From Salinigranum sp. (lineage in GTDB: Archaea; Halobacteriota; Halobacteria; Halobacteriales; Haloferacaceae): 64,000 nt of DNA. Below are positions 10,025 through 19,645 of this stretch, in pieces. Where the stretch lies: NCBI RefSeq assembly GCF_041641895.1, contig NZ_JBEPXO010000002.1, forward strand, positions 8,814 to 72,813, in the 5' to 3' direction. Under the pieces are notes generated by a model. That model saw only the letters and a program-made list of their open reading frames with translations, made no database searches and had not been told where the DNA came from. The first letter of the stretch is position 1. The number at the start of each line of letters is the position of its first letter. A program made the position numbers and the translations under genes.

Positions 10025-11026
10025 ATGAGCGACGGCGTGCAGACGGCGAGTTCCGTCAGGAGCATCGACGGTGTCGGGGACCGGGCGATGCACTGGCTGG
10101 TCCTCGGCGGGAACCGCATCGCCGTCTCGGCGCTCCTCGTCGGGGCCGTCGTAGCCGTCTTCTTCGTGTTGACGAGAGCCGGGGCGCTGGCCATCGGCCC
10201 GGGGAGCGCCGCGGCGTCAGCCTTCTCGAGCGGCCTCATCGCCGGCACGGTGACGCTCGTGACCATCTCGCTGTCCATCAACCAGCTCATCCTCTCTCGC
10301 GTGTTCGGCTCGCCGAACGAACTGTTCGACCAGCTGAACGGGACGCGTGACCTCCGGCGACGCGTCCGGGAACACGCCGGCGAGTCGGCCGTCCCGAACG
10401 ACCCGGCCGAGTTTCTGGACCTGGTGGCAGAGACGCTCACCGACCGCGCGAACCGCCTCCAGTCGGCGTGTGACGACGGCAGCGGCGACCAGCCACCAGC
10501 GGTCGCCGACTACGCCGCCGGCATCGCGGCCTACGGCGAGAGCATCAGCGCGAAGATCGAGAGCCAGACGGCCATCGTGAACGTCCTGGAGGTCATCCTG
10601 GGAACCGAGTACGCGAAGAACATGACCGCGACGGAACAGCTCCGGAACGAGTACGGCGGTCGCCTCCCCGTCGAGGCCGAGCGAGAACTCGACGCTATCG
10701 GCGACATCCTGGGGGCGGTTGCCGTCACGCGGCAGTTCTTCAAGACGCTCTCGCTGCAGCAGGACTTCGCTCGCCTCTCCCGCGTCGTCGCCTACAGCGG
10801 CCTCGTCGCCCTCGCGGCCAGCATCGCGATGGCGCTCGTCTACCGCCCCGACTCGGTCACCGTCCCGGCGGGGTCGCTCCCGCTCGTCTTCAGCCTCGGC
10901 CTCGGCGTCATCGTCACGCCGCTCGCCGTGTTCATCGCGTACGTGTTCCGGGCGGCCACCATCGCTCGCCACACCGTCTCGGTCGGACCGTTCGTCCCGC
11001 CAGCGGAACGCCCCGACGCCGAGTGA
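10025..11026 (+). CDS. Conserved-type haloarchaeal membrane protein of unknown function (2 TM, helical cytoplasmic region, 2 TM)
   Basis: Start MSDGVQTA at 10025; TLVTISLSINQLILSRVFGSP and RQFFKTLSLQQDFARLSRVVAY; acidic soluble middle. Confidence 0.8.
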   Translation: MSDGVQTASSVRSIDGVGDRAMHWLVLGGNRIAVSALLVGAVVAVFFVLTRAGALAIGPGSAAASAFSSGLIAGTVTLVTISLSINQLILSRVFGSPNELFDQLNGTRDLRRRVREHAGESAVPNDPAEFLDLVAETLTDRANRLQSACDDGSGDQPPAVADYAAGIAAYGESISAKIESQTAIVNVLEVILGTEYAKNMTATEQLRNEYGGRLPVEAERELDAIGDILGAVAVTRQFFKTLSLQQDFARLSRVVAYSGLVALAASIAMALVYRPDSVTVPAGSLPLVFSLGLGVIVTPLAVFIAYVFRAATIARHTVSVGPFVPPAERPDAE

Positions 11027-11081
11027 CGCGCCGGCGACTCGGGGCGCGGCAGTCCGTCTGCGCCGTTTGCAGGCCGCAGCG

Positions 11082-11147
11082 TTAAAGACAGCCGCGGTCA
11101 ACTCCGGGTGCCCGCGTCGAACGAGCGCGGGCCGAACGACGGAGGTG
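11082..11147 (+). promoter_or_regulatory. TATA-like box and Shine-Dalgarno for the basic peptide ORF
   Basis: TTAAAG at 11082-11087; GGAGGTG at 11141-11147, 7 nt before the ATG at 11155. Confidence 0.55.
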
Positions 11148-11154
11148 TTACTCG

Positions 11155-11256
11155 ATGGGAAAACTCCGTAAAGCGATGAAGACGTGGCGACGACTTCCGC
11201 GCCGCGTCCGACGACGCATCGTTCGCAAAGGACGACGCCTACTCCGACGGCGTTGA
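11155..11256 (+). CDS. 33-aa highly cationic peptide MGKLRKAMKTWRRLPRRVRRRIVRKGRRLLRRR
   Basis: Manual translation, below the ORF-track cutoff; perfect SD and upstream TATA; lies in an otherwise empty intergenic gap. Confidence 0.6.
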   Translation: MGKLRKAMKTWRRLPRRVRRRIVRKGRRLLRRR

Positions 11257-11568
11257 CCCGTCGGAGCCGTTCGTCTCGGTCGTCCCTCGCCGTCTGACAC
11301 CGGACCAGCCGCGGCCGTGTCGGAGAACAGCCCGCTTCGTTCTCGGTCGCTCCCAGCTACTCGTACGGTGTCCGTCTATCCACTCCTCGTCCGACGCTCG
11401 TCCGCCAGCGACTCGTCCGACCTCCGGTCCCCCGAGCGTGGACGCTCGCGAAGAGCCTTCGACCGCCCGTGCTCCGGGCTCTCGGCGACAGAGGAGAATC
11501 AGTCTGCGCCGCGTGTGTCGCACGCTTCGGAACGGGGTGGCGACGAACCGAAACAGCTGGTCGCGGCC

Positions 11569-12083
11569 TCAGTCGCCAGCGACCTGCTGCTGGTCGAACT
11601 GCTCGCTGGCCTCGGTGACCTCGTCGAGGGCCTGTTTCTCCTCGTCGAGGGTCTGTGACAGGAGGTCGGCGGCCTCGTCGTGGCCGGTCTTCTCGGCGAG
11701 CGACGCAAGTTACCGTAAGCGGCGATCTCGTAGTGCTCGGTCTTCTGTGCGACCGCCAGGTTGTAGCGGTCCAGCACCTCGCCCTCGTTGTCCTGTGCGA
11801 ACGACTCGTGCTCGTCGATGCGTGCGCGCACGACCGTCTCTTCTCGGGTTTGTGCGTCCGCTCCGATCTCTTCGAACACCTGCTCGAGGCGCTCGACGTG
11901 CTCTCGGGTCTCCTCGCGGTGCTCGGAGAACGCCTCCTTGGCGGTCTCGTCCTCCGTCTGTTCTGCGAGTGTCCAGAGGGCGTCGTCGAGTTCCTGTTCC
12001 GCGTGGTACATCTTCTGCAGTCCGTGAACGAGGAGTTGTTCTGTTATCGTCGACTCCACCTCCTCCTCCGACGGTCCGAGCAT
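11569..12083 (-). pseudogene. DUF892/YciF ferritin-like protein with a 1-nt frameshift near 11706-11709
   Basis: MYHAEQEL, EETREHVERLEQVF, QKTEHYEIAAYGN; restoring one base gives LASLAEKTGHDEAADLLSQTLDEEKQAL... with a stop at 11569-11571. Confidence 0.85.
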
Positions 12084-12323: not shown

Positions 12324-12848
12324 TTACGACCCGGTCTGATCCCGCGACTCGTCCTCCTCGGCTCCCGTCTCGTCTCCGCCGGGAGTCGCTTCGGACCGGG
12401 TCGACGCTACCAGGTTCTGGACGTACTGCATCCCGGTCGCGATTCCCGTCACACTGTCCATCAGCCGCTGCTGGGTGGCCTCGTCGGGGTAGATGCGATG
12501 TTCCATCTGGAGCGCATCGGCGTCTCTGAGTCTGCAGGACTGCCCCTCACTGTCGAGGAACGTGTAGAACCCGGGTGTCGACGCGAGGACCGGACCGATC
12601 TGGCCGAGCAGCTCCGTGCGCGTCTCTTCCTCGCGGACGAGACGCTGTGCTCGCTCCGTGTCGAACGCGCTCCGTCCGACAATCCGGACCGGCCCATCAT
12701 GTTCCTCTTTGATGAGGTGGAGAGGGAGCCGAGAGAGGGTCACCTCGAGGTTGAACTCCGTCTCCTCCTCGGCGTGCGACGCCACGTCCTGTACGGCGTC
12801 GTCGTCGAGCCACCAGCGGATCTGGTCGACGCTGAGGTGGGTTGTCAC
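12324..12848 (-). CDS. Hypothetical protein (possibly DUF2299/YbjN-like)
   Basis: Acidic 174-aa ORF with halophile composition; LQMEHRIYPDEATQQRLMDSV resembles the tail of chaperone-fold YbjN-like proteins. Confidence 0.6.
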   Translation of the reverse strand: MTTHLSVDQIRWWLDDDAVQDVASHAEEETEFNLEVTLSRLPLHLIKEEHDGPVRIVGRSAFDTERAQRLVREEETRTELLGQIGPVLASTPGFYTFLDSEGQSCRLRDADALQMEHRIYPDEATQQRLMDSVTGIATGMQYVQNLVASTRSEATPGGDETGAEEDESRDQTGS

Positions 12849-13405: not shown

Positions 13406-14158
13406 TCACTCCCCCGGCGGCCCCGCGGCCGGCACCGTCCGCGGCTCCGACCCGGTCAGCCACAGCAGGTCGCGCTGGTCGGCGTCCCGGGGGTTCACGT
13501 CGCGGTGAACCACGCCCGGCGGCAGGTGGAACCACTCGCCCGCCCGGACGAGCGCTCGGTCGTCCGGACCGGTCCCCCACTCGACGTACCCCTCGCCCTC
13601 GACGACGTAGCCGAAGACGTGGTTGTCGCCGTGGTGGTGCCAGTTCGACGCGACGGCACTGGCGGCGTGGCCGCGTACCTGCTGGACGGTCGCGTCGGGG
13701 AACGGTGTCAGGCGAGTGAGGTTCACCAGCGTCCCCGCCGGGACCAGGTCGCCCTCGCCGGCGACGAGGGGGTGGACCGCCGGCGGTCGGTCCGGCGGGG
13801 CGGCGTCGACGACGCGTGGTCCCGTGCCGGCGACGCCGACGAGCGCGACCTGAACCTCCCGTCCGGCCACCTCCCGGTGGACGACGGCGGCGGGCACGGA
13901 GAAGAAGTCGCCCGGGCCCACTGTGAGGGCGTCGGCGGCTCCCAGGCCGAACTCGATGCGTCCGCGGCCCGCGAGGACGACGCCGTAGACGGCGTGGTCG
14001 CCGTGGTGGTGCCACCCCGAGGACGCGCCCGGCCACAGGCGCGTCCGGCAGAGTTCGAACCCGGCGACGGTGACGAGTGACTCCGTCGTCGGCCCGTCCC
14101 GCTCGGTACTCTCCAGTGCGCTCGCCCCTCCGACGCTCACTCCCGGGTTCGTCGCCAT
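13406..14158 (-). CDS. Bicupin (two cupin_2 domains)
   Basis: Duplicated WHHHGD..V[YF]G.V..G.G and VP/LP..VVHR[ED]V motifs. Confidence 0.88.
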   Translation of the reverse strand: MATNPGVSVGGASALESTERDGPTTESLVTVAGFELCRTRLWPGASSGWHHHGDHAVYGVVLAGRGRIEFGLGAADALTVGPGDFFSVPAAVVHREVAGREVQVALVGVAGTGPRVVDAAPPDRPPAVHPLVAGEGDLVPAGTLVNLTRLTPFPDATVQQVRGHAASAVASNWHHHGDNHVFGYVVEGEGYVEWGTGPDDRALVRAGEWFHLPPGVVHRDVNPRDADQRDLLWLTGSEPRTVPAAGPPGE

Positions 14159-14236: not shown

Positions 14237-14686
14237 TTACTCGTTGTCCGCGTCGCTCGCGTCGCCGTTCACGTTGACCGTCAGCACGGGGACCGTCGCG
14301 TTGGCGACGACGCGGGCGGAGACGCTCCCGACCATGTTCTGCCGGTAGTTCGCGCCGTGGGTTCCCATGGTGACGACGTCGATGCCCGCCTCCTCGATGT
14401 ACGCGAGAATCTCCTCGGCCGGGTCACCGCGCCGGAGTACTGCCTTCGTCGCCACCTCGTCGTCCAGCTTCGCCCGGGCGGCGGCGGTGGCCTCGTTCCC
14501 CTCGCCCTCGAGTTCGTCGACCACGTCGTCGACGAGGTCGGGTGCGAGCGTCAGGAAGGCGCGGTCGTCGACCACGTAGAGCACGTGGACGGTCGCGTCG
14601 TGTCGGTGTGCCAGGTCGAGCGTGTGCCGGTAGACGTCGTCCATCGACTCCGTCCCGTCCGTCGGCAGCAGGATGTCGTCGTACAT
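14237..14686 (-). CDS. Universal stress protein (UspA family)
   Basis: MYDDILLPTDG...VVTMGTHG...GSVSARVVANATVPVLTV. Confidence 0.95.
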   Translation of the reverse strand: MYDDILLPTDGTESMDDVYRHTLDLAHRHDATVHVLYVVDDRAFLTLAPDLVDDVVDELEGEGNEATAAARAKLDDEVATKAVLRRGDPAEEILAYIEEAGIDVVTMGTHGANYRQNMVGSVSARVVANATVPVLTVNVNGDASDADNE

Positions 14687-16261: not shown

Positions 16262-17338
16262 CTACTCGCCCGCCCGTTCGCGCGCCGCGGCCACCACGAG
16301 CGGGAGCGTGATGGTCGCGTCCGCGACGACGGTGACGTTCCGCGCGTCCTTCTCCAGTTTCCCCCACGACCGCGCCTCGTCGAGCGTCGCCCCCGACAGA
16401 CCGCCGGTGTCGCTCGAGTCCATCGTCAACTGCACCGCGTAGTCGTACGCGTCGGGCACGGTGAGCATCGTCTGGAGGACGTAGTTCTTCGGGACGCCGC
16501 CGCCGACGACCAGCGCGCCCGCCGAGTCGGCCTCGAACGCGAGGTCAGAGAGGTGGGTCATGTCGCCGAGGGCGTCGAGCGCGAAGTCTGAGGTCTGCCC
16601 GTAGATCCACGCCTGGATGCCGAGCACCGAGTCCTGGATGGCCGGCACGTAGACGGGGACGTCACAGTCGTACGCCGCCGCGGCGATGCCGGCGTCCTCG
16701 TCGACGCCGTGCTCGCGGTTCTGTTCGAGGTTCGCCCGCCCCAGTTCGCGGGTGAACTCCCGGATGGTGACGGTCCGCTCGACTTCCGGAAAGACGTTCG
16801 CTCGCAGGTGCTTCTCGAACAGCGTGAAGTGCTCCTGGGGGAGGTAGACGTTGTAGATGCGGTCGACCCCCTCGTCGCGCAGGCGTTCGTCGTGCTCGCG
16901 CTCGCTCTCGGCGTCGGTGCGTTCCTCGACCCGGTGGTCGTGGGGGCCGACGCTCCCGTGGTGGTGCTTGCCGCCGACCGCCTCGATGGCGTCGTGGGTG
17001 AGGTTCGCCCCCGTCGTCACCAGGGCGTCGACGTGGCCGTCGCGGATGAGGTCGACCACGACCTGCCGCATCCCGGTCGGGACCATCGCGCCCGCGAGGC
17101 CGAGGAAGGTGGTCACCTCGGGCGCGAGCATCTCGCTGTAGATGTCGACCGCTCGCTCGACGCCGGCGGCGCCGATGCCCGCCTTCCCGTACTCGTCGAC
17201 GAGTTCGCCGACGGTCATCCCCGCCCGGACCCGCGTGTGACCGATGGGGTCCTCGCTGAACGTCTCTCTGTGTCCGGTTCCGTCGCCGTCACCCTCGCTG
17301 TCGCCCGCCTCTCCGTCGGGGGCGTCGTGGTCGCTCAT
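16262..17338 (-). CDS. dhs: Deoxyhypusine synthase
   Basis: GAMVPTGMR, TTGANLTHD, GGGVPKN and GGLSGATLDEARSWGK with the catalytic Lys. Confidence 0.96.
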   Translation of the reverse strand: MSDHDAPDGEAGDSEGDGDGTGHRETFSEDPIGHTRVRAGMTVGELVDEYGKAGIGAAGVERAVDIYSEMLAPEVTTFLGLAGAMVPTGMRQVVVDLIRDGHVDALVTTGANLTHDAIEAVGGKHHHGSVGPHDHRVEERTDAESEREHDERLRDEGVDRIYNVYLPQEHFTLFEKHLRANVFPEVERTVTIREFTRELGRANLEQNREHGVDEDAGIAAAAYDCDVPVYVPAIQDSVLGIQAWIYGQTSDFALDALGDMTHLSDLAFEADSAGALVVGGGVPKNYVLQTMLTVPDAYDYAVQLTMDSSDTGGLSGATLDEARSWGKLEKDARNVTVVADATITLPLVVAAARERAGE

Positions 17339-17408
17339 GGCGGGAGATGTGGCGGGCCGGCGTTTGAACGTCTCGGTCCGGCCTGCGGTGTCGCGGGCGT
17401 CGGCCCGC

Positions 17409-18179
17409 TCACAGCCCGGTCGGGTGTTCGACGTACGTCGTCTCCAGCCCCCAGTCCTCGGCGAGCGACGCGAGCGCGCGGACCCCGAACGTCTCCGTCG
17501 CGTAGTGGCCCGCGAGGAGGACGTTCACGCCCGACTCCCGCGCCTGGTGGTACACCTGTTGTTTGCCCTCGCCGGTGACGAACGTGTCGACGCCGGCCGC
17601 GACAGCTTCGTCGAGGAAGTCCGCGCCGCTCCCCGTCACGATGGCCACCTCGTCGGCCTCTTCGGGGCCGAACGAGAGCAGTCGAGTCTCCCCGCCCCCC
17701 TGCGGGAGTTCGTCGAGTTCCTCCTTGAGCGCCCGCGGCGACCGGGGCGTCGTCAACTGGCCACGCTGGCCGATAGGTTCGCCGCCCATCGTCGCGAACG
17801 GCGCTCGCTCCGTGAGGCCGAGGAACTCCGCGACGCCGGCGGCGTTGCCCAGTTGCTGGTGACCGTCGAGCGGCAGGTGTGAGACGTACAGCGCCAGGTC
17901 GGCCTCGACGAGACGGGCGATGCGGTCGTACGTCCGTCCGGTCACCCGTTCGATACCCCCCCACGAGAGGCCGTGGTGGGTCACGAGGAGGCCGGCGCCG
18001 GCGCTCGTGGCCTCGTCGATGGTGGTCCGCGCCGCGTCGACGGCGACGGCGACGTGGTCGACCTCCCGCCCCTGCTCGTCGGCGCCGACCTGCAACCCGT
18101 TGGCGCTGGCGTCGATGTCGGCGTACGCGTCCGTCTGCAGCTTCTCGTCGTACCGCGCGACCAGTTCGCTGAGTTCCAT
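17409..18179 (-). CDS. Nif3-like dinuclear metal-centre protein (YbgI/DUF34)
   Basis: DASANGLQVG, LLVTHHGLSW, SHLPLDGH, GHYATETFG; start MELSEL at 18179. Confidence 0.93.
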   Translation of the reverse strand: MELSELVARYDEKLQTDAYADIDASANGLQVGADEQGREVDHVAVAVDAARTTIDEATSAGAGLLVTHHGLSWGGIERVTGRTYDRIARLVEADLALYVSHLPLDGHQQLGNAAGVAEFLGLTERAPFATMGGEPIGQRGQLTTPRSPRALKEELDELPQGGGETRLLSFGPEEADEVAIVTGSGADFLDEAVAAGVDTFVTGEGKQQVYHQARESGVNVLLAGHYATETFGVRALASLAEDWGLETTYVEHPTGL

Positions 18180-18237
18180 GCCGGATGCTCGGGGGCGACG
18201 CGTTTGTATCTGTACTTCTCGGTCGGGGAGCCCCCCG

Positions 18238-18363
18238 TCAGACCCCGAACCACCGGGCGGCCCCGCCGGCGAGGAGCGCGAGTCCGCCGGTGATGAACGT
18301 CCCCGGAACCGGGAGGACGAAGAGCAGTACACCGAGCGCGAGTACGATTGTCGATATTCGCAC
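18238..18363 (-). CDS. 41-aa hydrophobic microprotein
   Basis: GTG start at 18363: MRISTIVLALGVLLFVLPVPGTFITGGLALLAGGAARWFGV; co-oriented inside the aIF-5A cluster. Confidence 0.65.
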   Translation of the reverse strand: MRISTIVLALGVLLFVLPVPGTFITGGLALLAGGAARWFGV

Positions 18364-18427
18364 GACTGACACGAACACCGGGAACGGGGTAGCCCTTGTG
18401 CCTGCAGTGACGGGGCCCGGGGTCGCG

Positions 18428-19252
18428 CTACTCGTCCCCGGCGGGGCCGCCACCCGCCGCGTGCGTGTAGACGAACTCGCGGAGGAGTTTCCCACCGAGT
18501 GCGGCTGCCTGGCCGTCGTCGCGGTCGTTCACCTCGACCACGTCGAAGCCGACACACGCGGGGGACACCGCCCGGACGACGTCGCGCAGCTGGGTAGACG
18601 AGAGGCCGAACGGCTCCATCGTCCCCGTTCCGGGAGCGACGCTCGGGTCCGCCCCGTCGATGTCGACGCTGAGGTACACCGATCCGGTGGCTTCGAACCC
18701 CGCGAGCCACTCGGTGACCGACTCGGGCGGGACGACGGTCACGTCCTCCTCCTCCGCTCGCTCCCACTCCTCGGGTGATCCCGTCCGCGCCCCGACGACG
18801 ACGGCCTCGTCGACGACGTCGAGGACGTGTCGGGTCACGCAGGCGTGGCTCCACTCGTTGCCGTCGTACTCGGGTCTGAGGTCGAGGTGCGCGTCGAGAC
18901 AGACGAACGTCTCCGGTTCCGTGGCCTCGACGCCCGCGTAGCTCACCGTGTGCTCGCCGCCGAGGAGGAGCGGGACCGCGCCGTCCCAGACGACGTCGCG
19001 GAGCGTCCCCGAGAGGAAGGAGAGATACTCCCGGGCGTCGTCCCACGCGCGGACATCGCCCTCGTCGGCGACGCCGAGTTCGGTGAACTGCTGTCCGGTG
19101 CGGTGGTCGTAGTCGTCGTACGTCTCGGCGTACTTCCGAATCTCGTCGGGCCCGAACCGCGTCCCCGGCTGGAACGTCGTCGAGACGTCGAGCGGTGCGC
19201 CCACGACGACGTAGTCGGCGGCGTCGCGCTCGGCCGTCGCCCCGGGGAACAT
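18428..19252 (-). CDS. speB: Agmatinase (ureohydrolase family)
   Basis: GGEHTV, DAHLD, SVDIDGADP...APGTG..EPFGL, DVVEV ureohydrolase motifs. Confidence 0.95.
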   Translation of the reverse strand: MFPGATAERDAADYVVVGAPLDVSTTFQPGTRFGPDEIRKYAETYDDYDHRTGQQFTELGVADEGDVRAWDDAREYLSFLSGTLRDVVWDGAVPLLLGGEHTVSYAGVEATEPETFVCLDAHLDLRPEYDGNEWSHACVTRHVLDVVDEAVVVGARTGSPEEWERAEEEDVTVVPPESVTEWLAGFEATGSVYLSVDIDGADPSVAPGTGTMEPFGLSSTQLRDVVRAVSPACVGFDVVEVNDRDDGQAAALGGKLLREFVYTHAAGGGPAGDE

Positions 19253-19264
19253 GTGGTTCGACCG

Positions 19265-19645
19265 CTAGGACCGGACGATCTTACGCTGTCCCTCGTACTC
19301 GAGGAACTCGATCTCGTCGTCGGAACTCGCACTGATACCGTCGGGGATGCGCATCGTGAACGTCTCGTAGGAGTCGAGGTCCATCACCTGCATCTCGCCG
19401 CCCGAGGCGGAGAGGACCTGCCCGCCCTTGCGTTCGATGATGGGCACCCAGACTTTCGCGTCGACGGGCTGGGAGAGCGAGCGCTTCTTGTTGTCGAAGA
19501 CGCCCTTCCCCTCGATGCGTGCCTTGGCGCTTCCGTGCTTGCCCGGCTTGGCGGTCGAGTACGCGTTGATCTTGCAGGGCGAGTCCTCCATCATGACGTA
19601 GCTGCCCTCTTGGAGTTCCCTGACCTGCTTCTGCTCTTTCGCCAT
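19265..19645 (-). CDS. eif5a: Translation factor aIF-5A
   Basis: [17 protein letters not shown] with the (deoxy)hypusine Lys; start MAKEQKQ at 19645. Confidence 0.98.

Follow-up and report, generated by a model that had tools for sequence, protein, structure and literature searches.

The ribosomal protein eL41/eS32 binds a pocket formed by helices h27, h44 and h45 of the 16S rRNA at the subunit interface. Structured RNA is bound by arginine-rich-motif peptides of the lambda N and HIV Rev/Tat type and by bTHX, all of them short helices rich in Arg that often include a key Trp. Haloarchaeal proteomes are acidic and basic proteins are rare in them, ribosomal proteins being among the few exceptions. 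The archaeal form of eL41/eS32 (PDB 9fny_A2, 6sw9_0 and 6skf_Bk), which is 37 aa long in Thermococcales, has an Arg/Lys-rich helix of about 20 residues after its N-terminal segment. Its distribution among archaea is patchy, annotation often misses it (PMC7005279, PMC3353972), and it is absent from Methanosarcina acetivorans (PMC12605026). In Actinobacteria and Bacteroidetes, the eL41 pocket is occupied by bS22, which is encoded by a stand-alone micro-gene that is frequently unannotated (PMC7005279). The eL41/eS32 and bS22 sequences considered here were both verified against PDB chains. The haloarchaeal family described below shares features with each of them: like eL41/eS32, its members are tiny and almost purely basic, and, like bS22 (33 aa; listed with the mS38 C-terminus, Pfam DUF1713/COX24_C; PDB 5o5j), they begin with MG, are polybasic and are specific to a lineage.

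In the window (the whole 64,000-nt stretch of DNA that was analysed), an ORF on the forward strand runs from the ATG at 11155 to the TGA at 11254-11256; its 33-aa product contains 14 Arg and 4 Lys but neither Asp nor Glu, giving a net charge of +18. An initial annotation of this DNA had described the ORF with this composition, a GGAGGTG with 7-nt spacing in front of it and a TTAAAG about 68 nt upstream; all three are present, with 67 nt between the TTAAAG box and the ATG. The features of the locus are as follows.

11060..11268, + strand: conserved cassette (promoter region, 5′ UTR, ORF and 12 nt past the stop), delimited by DNA matches to relatives
11082..11087, + strand: TATA-like box TTAAAG, the putative promoter, with a TTAAGA-type box at a like distance in most homologous loci
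11110..11154, + strand: putative 5′ UTR of about 40-45 nt, its extent estimated from the position of the TATA-like box
11141..11147, + strand: Shine-Dalgarno (SD) sequence GGAGGTG, 7 nt before the ATG, with a like site in homologous loci
11155..11256, + strand: coding sequence of the 33-aa polycationic protein, stop included, from the ORF translation and 31 extracted homologs

Two convergent genes flank the ORF, with a gap of 544 nt between them. In a DNA search of relatives, the cassette is the sole part of this gap that matches other genomes of the genus (82% identity in G006 and 76% in G001), and the match of one genome from another family begins exactly at the ATG. Because Arg-rich shadow ORFs are common in this GC-rich window, and indeed fill it, the composition of the ORF alone does not lift it above chance; on the alignments, it is conservation that does so. 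The Asp-rich +1 frame had been set aside in the initial annotation on account of a TGA at 11179-11181 and the lack of a start codon within the peptide-coding span. The TGA is in fact at 11177-11179, and the second point stands, as no ATG, GTG or TTG occurs in that frame until 11438.

Matches were translated, and 401 Halobacteriales genomes were searched with a small HMM and then with an HMM built from 30 sequences (alignment A2). Of the 31 homologs extracted, 30 are intact, at 30-42 aa, and one, the G001 copy, has lost its stop; A2 aligns 30 sequences. All 31 open with ATG and follow the pattern MGK(F/L)(R/S)KA..WRRLPR, and all except the decaying G001 copy reach a stop after 30-42 codons. Residues M1, K3, W11, R12, R13, P15 and R16 are invariant across the 30 sequences of A2, and the Leu-Pro hinge (L14-P15) is conserved; one more divergent family member has WQQLPN in place of the WRRLPR-type motif. 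Over the first 30 codons, the column entropy at the first, second and third codon positions is 20.5, 14.7 and 38.5, respectively, showing that variation is concentrated at third positions. The pooled pN/pS in the ORF frame is 0.385, the lowest of all frames. In four of the five alternative frames, pN/pS is 1.1-1.7 and stops are present in 8-25 of the 31 homologs, and on these stops the Asp-rich +1 frame and the other overlapping frames were rejected. The antisense -1 frame, the third positions of which coincide with those of the ORF, is open in all homologs with a pN/pS of 0.60, but it was also rejected as a gene, because its constraint is weaker and it has no conserved start. Pairwise comparisons show the same bias towards synonymous substitutions: the window copy (G000) differs from that of Haloarcula amylovorans by nine synonymous codon changes and one nonsynonymous change and from G006 by seven and two, and two Halococcus-type loci differ by seven and one. 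The stop is kept despite switching of its codon (TGA in 12, TAA in 12 and TAG in 7).

The net charge of the family ranges from +11 to +18, whereas the Arg:Lys ratio swings from 14:3 to 5:10. It is therefore the charge that is selected and not CGN codons, which removes the explanation, raised as a caveat in the initial annotation, that the Arg-rich frame is a shadow of Asp (GAC) codons; this caveat is further dismissed by the stops that the +1 and +2 frames carry in 13 of the 31 homologs. With the frame preserved among homologs, the start, SD and stop conserved, variation concentrated at third positions and purifying selection in the ORF frame, the sequence comparisons show that ORF 11155-11256 is a genuine gene under protein-level purifying selection and not an Arg-rich shadow frame, and the hidden small gene first proposed from the letters of the DNA is real and looks independently expressed. 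The condition for refutation set in the initial annotation, a lack of homologs that keep the frame, is thereby answered. An account in which the ORF is no gene at all, but an Arg-rich frame open by chance or the shadow of something else (GAC-rich or GC-rich sequence, or a conserved non-coding element of either strand), could draw on the abundance of Arg-rich shadow ORFs in the window, on the open antisense -1 frame and on the fact that gene callers almost never predict the ORF. We consider it exceedingly improbable given the low pN/pS and third-position variation of the ORF frame, the conserved ATG, SD and variable-codon stop, and the existence of Lys-rich orthologs. Against it also stands the sole copy that has lost the TATA-like box, which has lost its stop and gained ten nonsynonymous changes as well. 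In this copy (G001; same genus, contig C12, about 12616-12817), the TATA-like box is mutated and the SD is weakened; it differs from the window by 10 nonsynonymous and 6 synonymous codon changes, and the loss of 1 nt near the C-terminus shifts the frame and removes the stop, leaving a 130-codon open frame. The copy looks like a decaying gene or the outcome of sequence errors in an 82%-complete, 360-contig draft; either way, its features decay together.

The family has gone almost entirely unannotated. No Pfam or NCBIfam family matches the protein, nor does any PDB chain, and only about five members are found among 15 billion predicted proteins, a collection from which the window peptide and four other members are missing. 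With a natural 42-aa member as the query, two proteins were recovered from 5.8 billion by a word-indexed search. One is a JGI metagenome protein (P0002) named 'mRNA-degrading endonuclease RelE', a name that no similarity supports; the other is the hypothetical protein HSB1_28910 of Halogranum salarium B-1 (ALJD01000007.1; locus L042, 6001-6132), for which the annotated start is a GTG that precedes the conserved ATG by 8 codons. When 1.84 billion cluster representatives were searched exhaustively with the profile, only three proteins emerged, all 35-38 aa long, and the motif did not occur as a domain of any longer protein. HSB1_28910 and these few metagenomic 'hypothetical' or 'RelE' calls are true, uncharacterized members of the family and the only ones in public protein collections. 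The motif strings appear in no paper in the literature searched, and the locus is not mentioned in the Haloferax small-proteome paper.

The sequence surrounding the ORF suggests that it is expressed autonomously, from its own TATA-like box through a leader of about 40 nt with a strong SD to its own stop. An SD-like GAGGTG or GGAGG is located at -13/-14 in 28 of the 31 homologous loci, and most of them have a TTAAGA-type box some 61-69 nt upstream of the ATG. At 14 loci, exactly 25.5-26.5 nt also separate this box from the start codon of a divergent NIF3 gene; as this is the distance expected for a leaderless mRNA, the box is possibly shared with NIF3. Where NIF3 is 120-185 nt away, the box still keeps its distance to the small ORF, and in the window no NIF3 adjoins it, which allows the box to be assigned provisionally to the small gene. 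T-runs of four or more are found within 50 nt after the stop in 14 of 31 loci. The putative 5′ UTR contains a GC hairpin (CCCGCG...CGCGGG), which is plausible by eye. As a conserved element it was dropped, given that the 31 homologous leaders are no more stable than dinucleotide shuffles (mean z of -0.31). An Rfam scan of 10900-11700 gave sub-threshold noise only, and no cognate RNA element was found by either approach.

Single-copy, full-length HMM matches (E values of 1e-8 to 1e-17) were obtained in 50 of the 401 Halobacteriales genomes (12%, or roughly one in eight), with essentially nothing between these matches and noise. The large searches scored 19-26 candidates per genome, and genus-level reruns with up to 150 candidates gave the same answer. 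By family (coded), the gene is present in 17 of 21 genomes of f6, 15 of 35 of f17, 6 of 14 of f18, 7 of 69 of f1 (window genome excluded), 3 of 69 of f2 and 1 of 68 of f12. At the level of genera, 3 of 7 genomes of the window's own genus and 9 of 13 genomes of a Halococcus-like genus carry it, the four genomes of the latter without the gene being 95-97% complete. The named carriers are Haloarcula amylovorans, Halococcus salifodinae, Haloprofundus marisrubri, Halomarina halobia and Halogranum salarium. Outside the Halobacteriales, about 250 genomes of the phylum gave two marginal, partial matches, neither of them convincing. A mobile or viral origin is unsupported, as plasmid, phage and IMG/VR collections gave no matches, although the low-complexity filter of BLAST may hide some.

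The neighbourhood of the gene in the window differs from that found in most other carriers. The neighbouring genes and the aIF5A cluster, the latter located by tblastn with Halogranum proteins, are listed here.

10100-11026, + strand: upstream membrane-like gene of about 300 aa, with no Pfam family
about 11571-12083, - strand: DUF892 gene (Pfam), the next gene, convergent
13406-14158, - strand: cupin gene
14237-14686, - strand: USP gene
16262..19645, - strand: aIF5A cluster
16262-17338, - strand: deoxyhypusine synthase (DHS)
17412-18179, - strand: NIF3
18428-19252, - strand: agmatinase
19274-19645, - strand: aIF5A

Public gene calls for two family members, together with tblastn of all fetched loci, show that outside the window's genus the small gene is nearly always located antisense in the agmatinase-NIF3 gap of an aIF5A-agmatinase-NIF3-DHS cluster. 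There it is head-to-head with NIF3 and tail-to-tail with agmatinase, and the cluster genes are co-directional. In the window, the cassette is 7 kb from this cluster, the agmatinase-NIF3 gap of which (18180-18427) lacks the small gene. As the initial annotation stated, genes for DUF892, USP and cupin are nearby, but the link to stress functions that it drew from them does not hold up: given that the near-invariant slot of the gene elsewhere is the aIF5A cluster, here 7 kb off, these neighbours are incidental. In each of the three genomes of the genus with the small gene, it follows the same membrane-protein gene; in a fourth genome of the genus, a dehydrogenase comes directly after that membrane gene.

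Three further observations concern these neighbours. The upstream gene (10100-11026) belongs to an uncharacterized multi-copy haloarchaeal family, with 2-7 distant paralogs (25-33% identity) per genome in the genus. The DUF892 gene truly ends at about 11571 and not at 11499: a frameshift at about 11700 makes the frame that reads up to '...AAYGNL' run into Arg/Pro-rich nonsense, and the proper C-terminus, '...EQFDQQQVAGD*', lies in another frame. The frameshift reflects either a pseudogene or an assembly error in this 153-contig draft. Finally, the agmatinase-NIF3 gap of the window contains an ORF of about 46 codons (18238-18378, - strand) that reads in the direction of the cluster, starts with GTG and has a hydrophobic product predicted to include two membrane-like segments.

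Divergent homologs were sought in the region upstream of NIF3 in 40 genomes without an HMM match. Agmatinase is within 1.3 kb upstream of NIF3 in 21 of the 40, the gap between the two genes being 2-97 nt in 10 of those genomes; in two of these they abut within about 2-8 nt. The larger gaps among these 40 genomes contain no Arg-rich ORF. As the gaps are short or devoid of an Arg-rich ORF, the gene is truly absent there and so is accessory and dispensable. Genus g48 (coded) includes both states. In the locus with the cassette (L017), about 250 nt separate agmatinase from NIF3, whose ATG lies 26.5 nt from the TTAAGA box; in the loci without it (L116 and L117), agmatinase and NIF3 abut, with a gap of about 2-8 nt, or seem to overlap. 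No repeats that would point to a mobile origin were found at the junction in one genus with both states. The contrast in g48 suggests that the cassette turns one operon into two transcription units.

These arrangements raise the question of whether the cassette acts mainly in cis, with its promoter, antisense transcription and terminator splitting the aIF5A-agmatinase-NIF3-DHS operon and giving NIF3-DHS a promoter of its own, or with translation of the Arg/Pro-containing ORF sensing arginine or aIF5A activity. The leaderless-transcript spacing of the box to NIF3 at 14 loci, the tight or overlapping agmatinase-NIF3 junctions in genomes without the cassette and the nature of the neighbours, which concern arginine-derived agmatine and aIF5A, would all fit such a role. 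We nevertheless judge it improbable. The window cassette has left the cluster and yet is under protein-level purifying selection. The next gene is convergent both in the window (DUF892) and at the syntenic loci (agmatinase), so that none lies downstream on the same strand, which makes classical attenuation by a leader peptide or uORF impossible. Arg is freely replaced by Lys, and Arg codons as such are therefore not conserved, whereas non-basic residues are. Action in trans, as a protein, is better supported, because the cassette moved 7 kb within the genus and still keeps its sequence, promoter and SD, and because the Lys-rich members keep their charge.

AlphaFold2, run with the family alignment, predicts helices at residues 3-13 and 16-32 with a break at L14-P15 (pLDDT of 83), and each predicted helix bears a narrow hydrophobic stripe. 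The helix-Pro-helix arrangement suggested in the initial annotation fits this model. The product belongs to a haloarchaea-specific polycationic family of 30-42 residues, with two short, predicted amphipathic helices hinged at a conserved Leu-Pro. In overall shape (30-42 aa, +11 to +18, modelled helices 3-13 and 16-32), the family is compatible with eL41/eS32, although not specifically so. An eL41-like peptide had been among the first suggestions for this ORF, but no sequence similarity backs it. Pfam at E <= 10 gives no PF05162 match, a genome search with PF05162 does not pick the locus, and hhalign of A2 against Thermococcales eL41 returns a probability of 0.4%. The family differs from eL41 in its conserved MGK..K....WRRLPR N-terminus and predicted N-terminal helix. 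For bS22/DUF1713, there is likewise no Pfam match, the hhalign probability is 0.85% over a 10-residue low-complexity stretch only, and the BLASTP E value is 1.7. Arginine-rich-motif peptides and bTHX are viral or bacterial and unrelated in sequence to the family. Because these profile comparisons are null and a 12% distribution is unlike that of a core ribosomal protein, the family is not filed as a member of eL41 or bS22. By analogy, that it works as these proteins do lies, in our estimate, somewhere between unlikely and possible.

We infer that the product binds RNA or the ribosome, that it acts in trans and that transcription starts as placed above. Most likely, it would act as an arginine-rich RNA-binding peptide, and it would probably be an accessory, non-essential protein that associates with the ribosome and lies embedded in rRNA, much as eL41/eS32, bS22 or bTHX do. 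A trans-acting polycationic RNA binder is the most economical reading, because non-basic residues are conserved and the relocated copy is under protein-level selection; it is favoured further by the lack of a downstream gene that could be attenuated, of a signal or transmembrane segment and of any copy in mobile elements. Association with the ribosome is the leading guess as to the target for four reasons: size and charge match those of eL41/eS32 (37 aa) and bS22 (33 aa); eL41, by published accounts, occurs patchily in archaea and readily escapes detection there; no Thermococcales-type eL41 was detected in the window's genome or in 81 haloarchaeal genomes, the search of the latter having had no positive control; and the gene's usual neighbours, aIF5A and deoxyhypusine synthase, are translation genes. 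The predicted helix-hinge-helix was also counted in favour of RNA or ribosome binding, as was the rarity of basic proteins other than ribosomal ones in haloarchaea. Against a ribosomal role speak the patchy 12% distribution, unlike that of a core ribosomal protein, the near-complete genomes that lack the gene and the missing sequence similarity to eL41, bS22 or any PDB chain, Pfam or NCBIfam family; the synteny with the aIF5A cluster may, moreover, reflect only vertical inheritance of an intergenic slot. Taken as a whole, by analogy with these systems, the explanation that this is a genuine autonomous gene for a trans-acting RNA-binding peptide, probably ribosome-associated, is held tentatively, at slightly less than an even chance.

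The same extreme charge density (+11 to +18 in 30-42 aa), conserved whatever the Arg:Lys ratio, would also suit a general nucleic-acid binder outside the ribosome, such as a protamine-like coat of DNA or the nucleoid, an RNA chaperone or a condensate-forming peptide, and the accessory, lineage-specific distribution and absence of homology to any ribosomal protein agree with this. The strongly conserved N-terminal 16 residues, with W11 and L14-P15, suggest instead a specific docking site as opposed to bulk charge; moreover, the gene is single-copy, and a good SD is the only sign of high expression in its sequence. We therefore regard a general binder as rather unlikely.

The two predicted amphipathic helices with their narrow hydrophobic stripes, again together with the accessory distribution, could also be read as those of a membrane-active or toxic peptide, a cationic amphipathic molecule of antimicrobial or toxin type directed at the anionic haloarchaeal membrane or at competitors. 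This seems very improbable. The alignment contains no signal peptide, precursor region or transmembrane stretch and no hydrophobic stretch of more than 2-3 residues, and a secreted antimicrobial peptide is made less likely in particular by the lack of either a signal sequence or a precursor form. No export, immunity or antitoxin gene is adjacent, the neighbours being housekeeping genes; the gene is stable in a chromosomal housekeeping cluster; and plasmid, phage and viral collections hold no copies.

A conserved micro-protein with a charge of +11 to +18 is a clear outlier in acidic haloarchaeal proteomes, and it is almost certainly a ligand of nucleic acid. The family is invisible to current annotation, yet six-frame searches uncover it in roughly an eighth of the Halobacteriales genomes, making it an example of a hidden small archaeal proteome. 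Its slot among aIF5A, agmatinase and deoxyhypusine synthase, together with its resemblance to eL41 and bS22, makes the hypothesis of an accessory ribosomal or translation-linked protein directly testable; cultivable carriers exist, and close relatives that naturally lack the gene could be used as controls. A more specific version, in our view doubtful, is that the family is a haloarchaea-specific, dispensable ribosomal protein that fills the eL41/bS22/mS38 pocket by the decoding centre, or another rRNA cavity. On that reading, the antisense side of the NIF3 promoter in the aIF5A-hypusination cluster may have given rise to the family de novo, and, if true, the family would represent a further independent invention of a polycationic 'rRNA filler' peptide.
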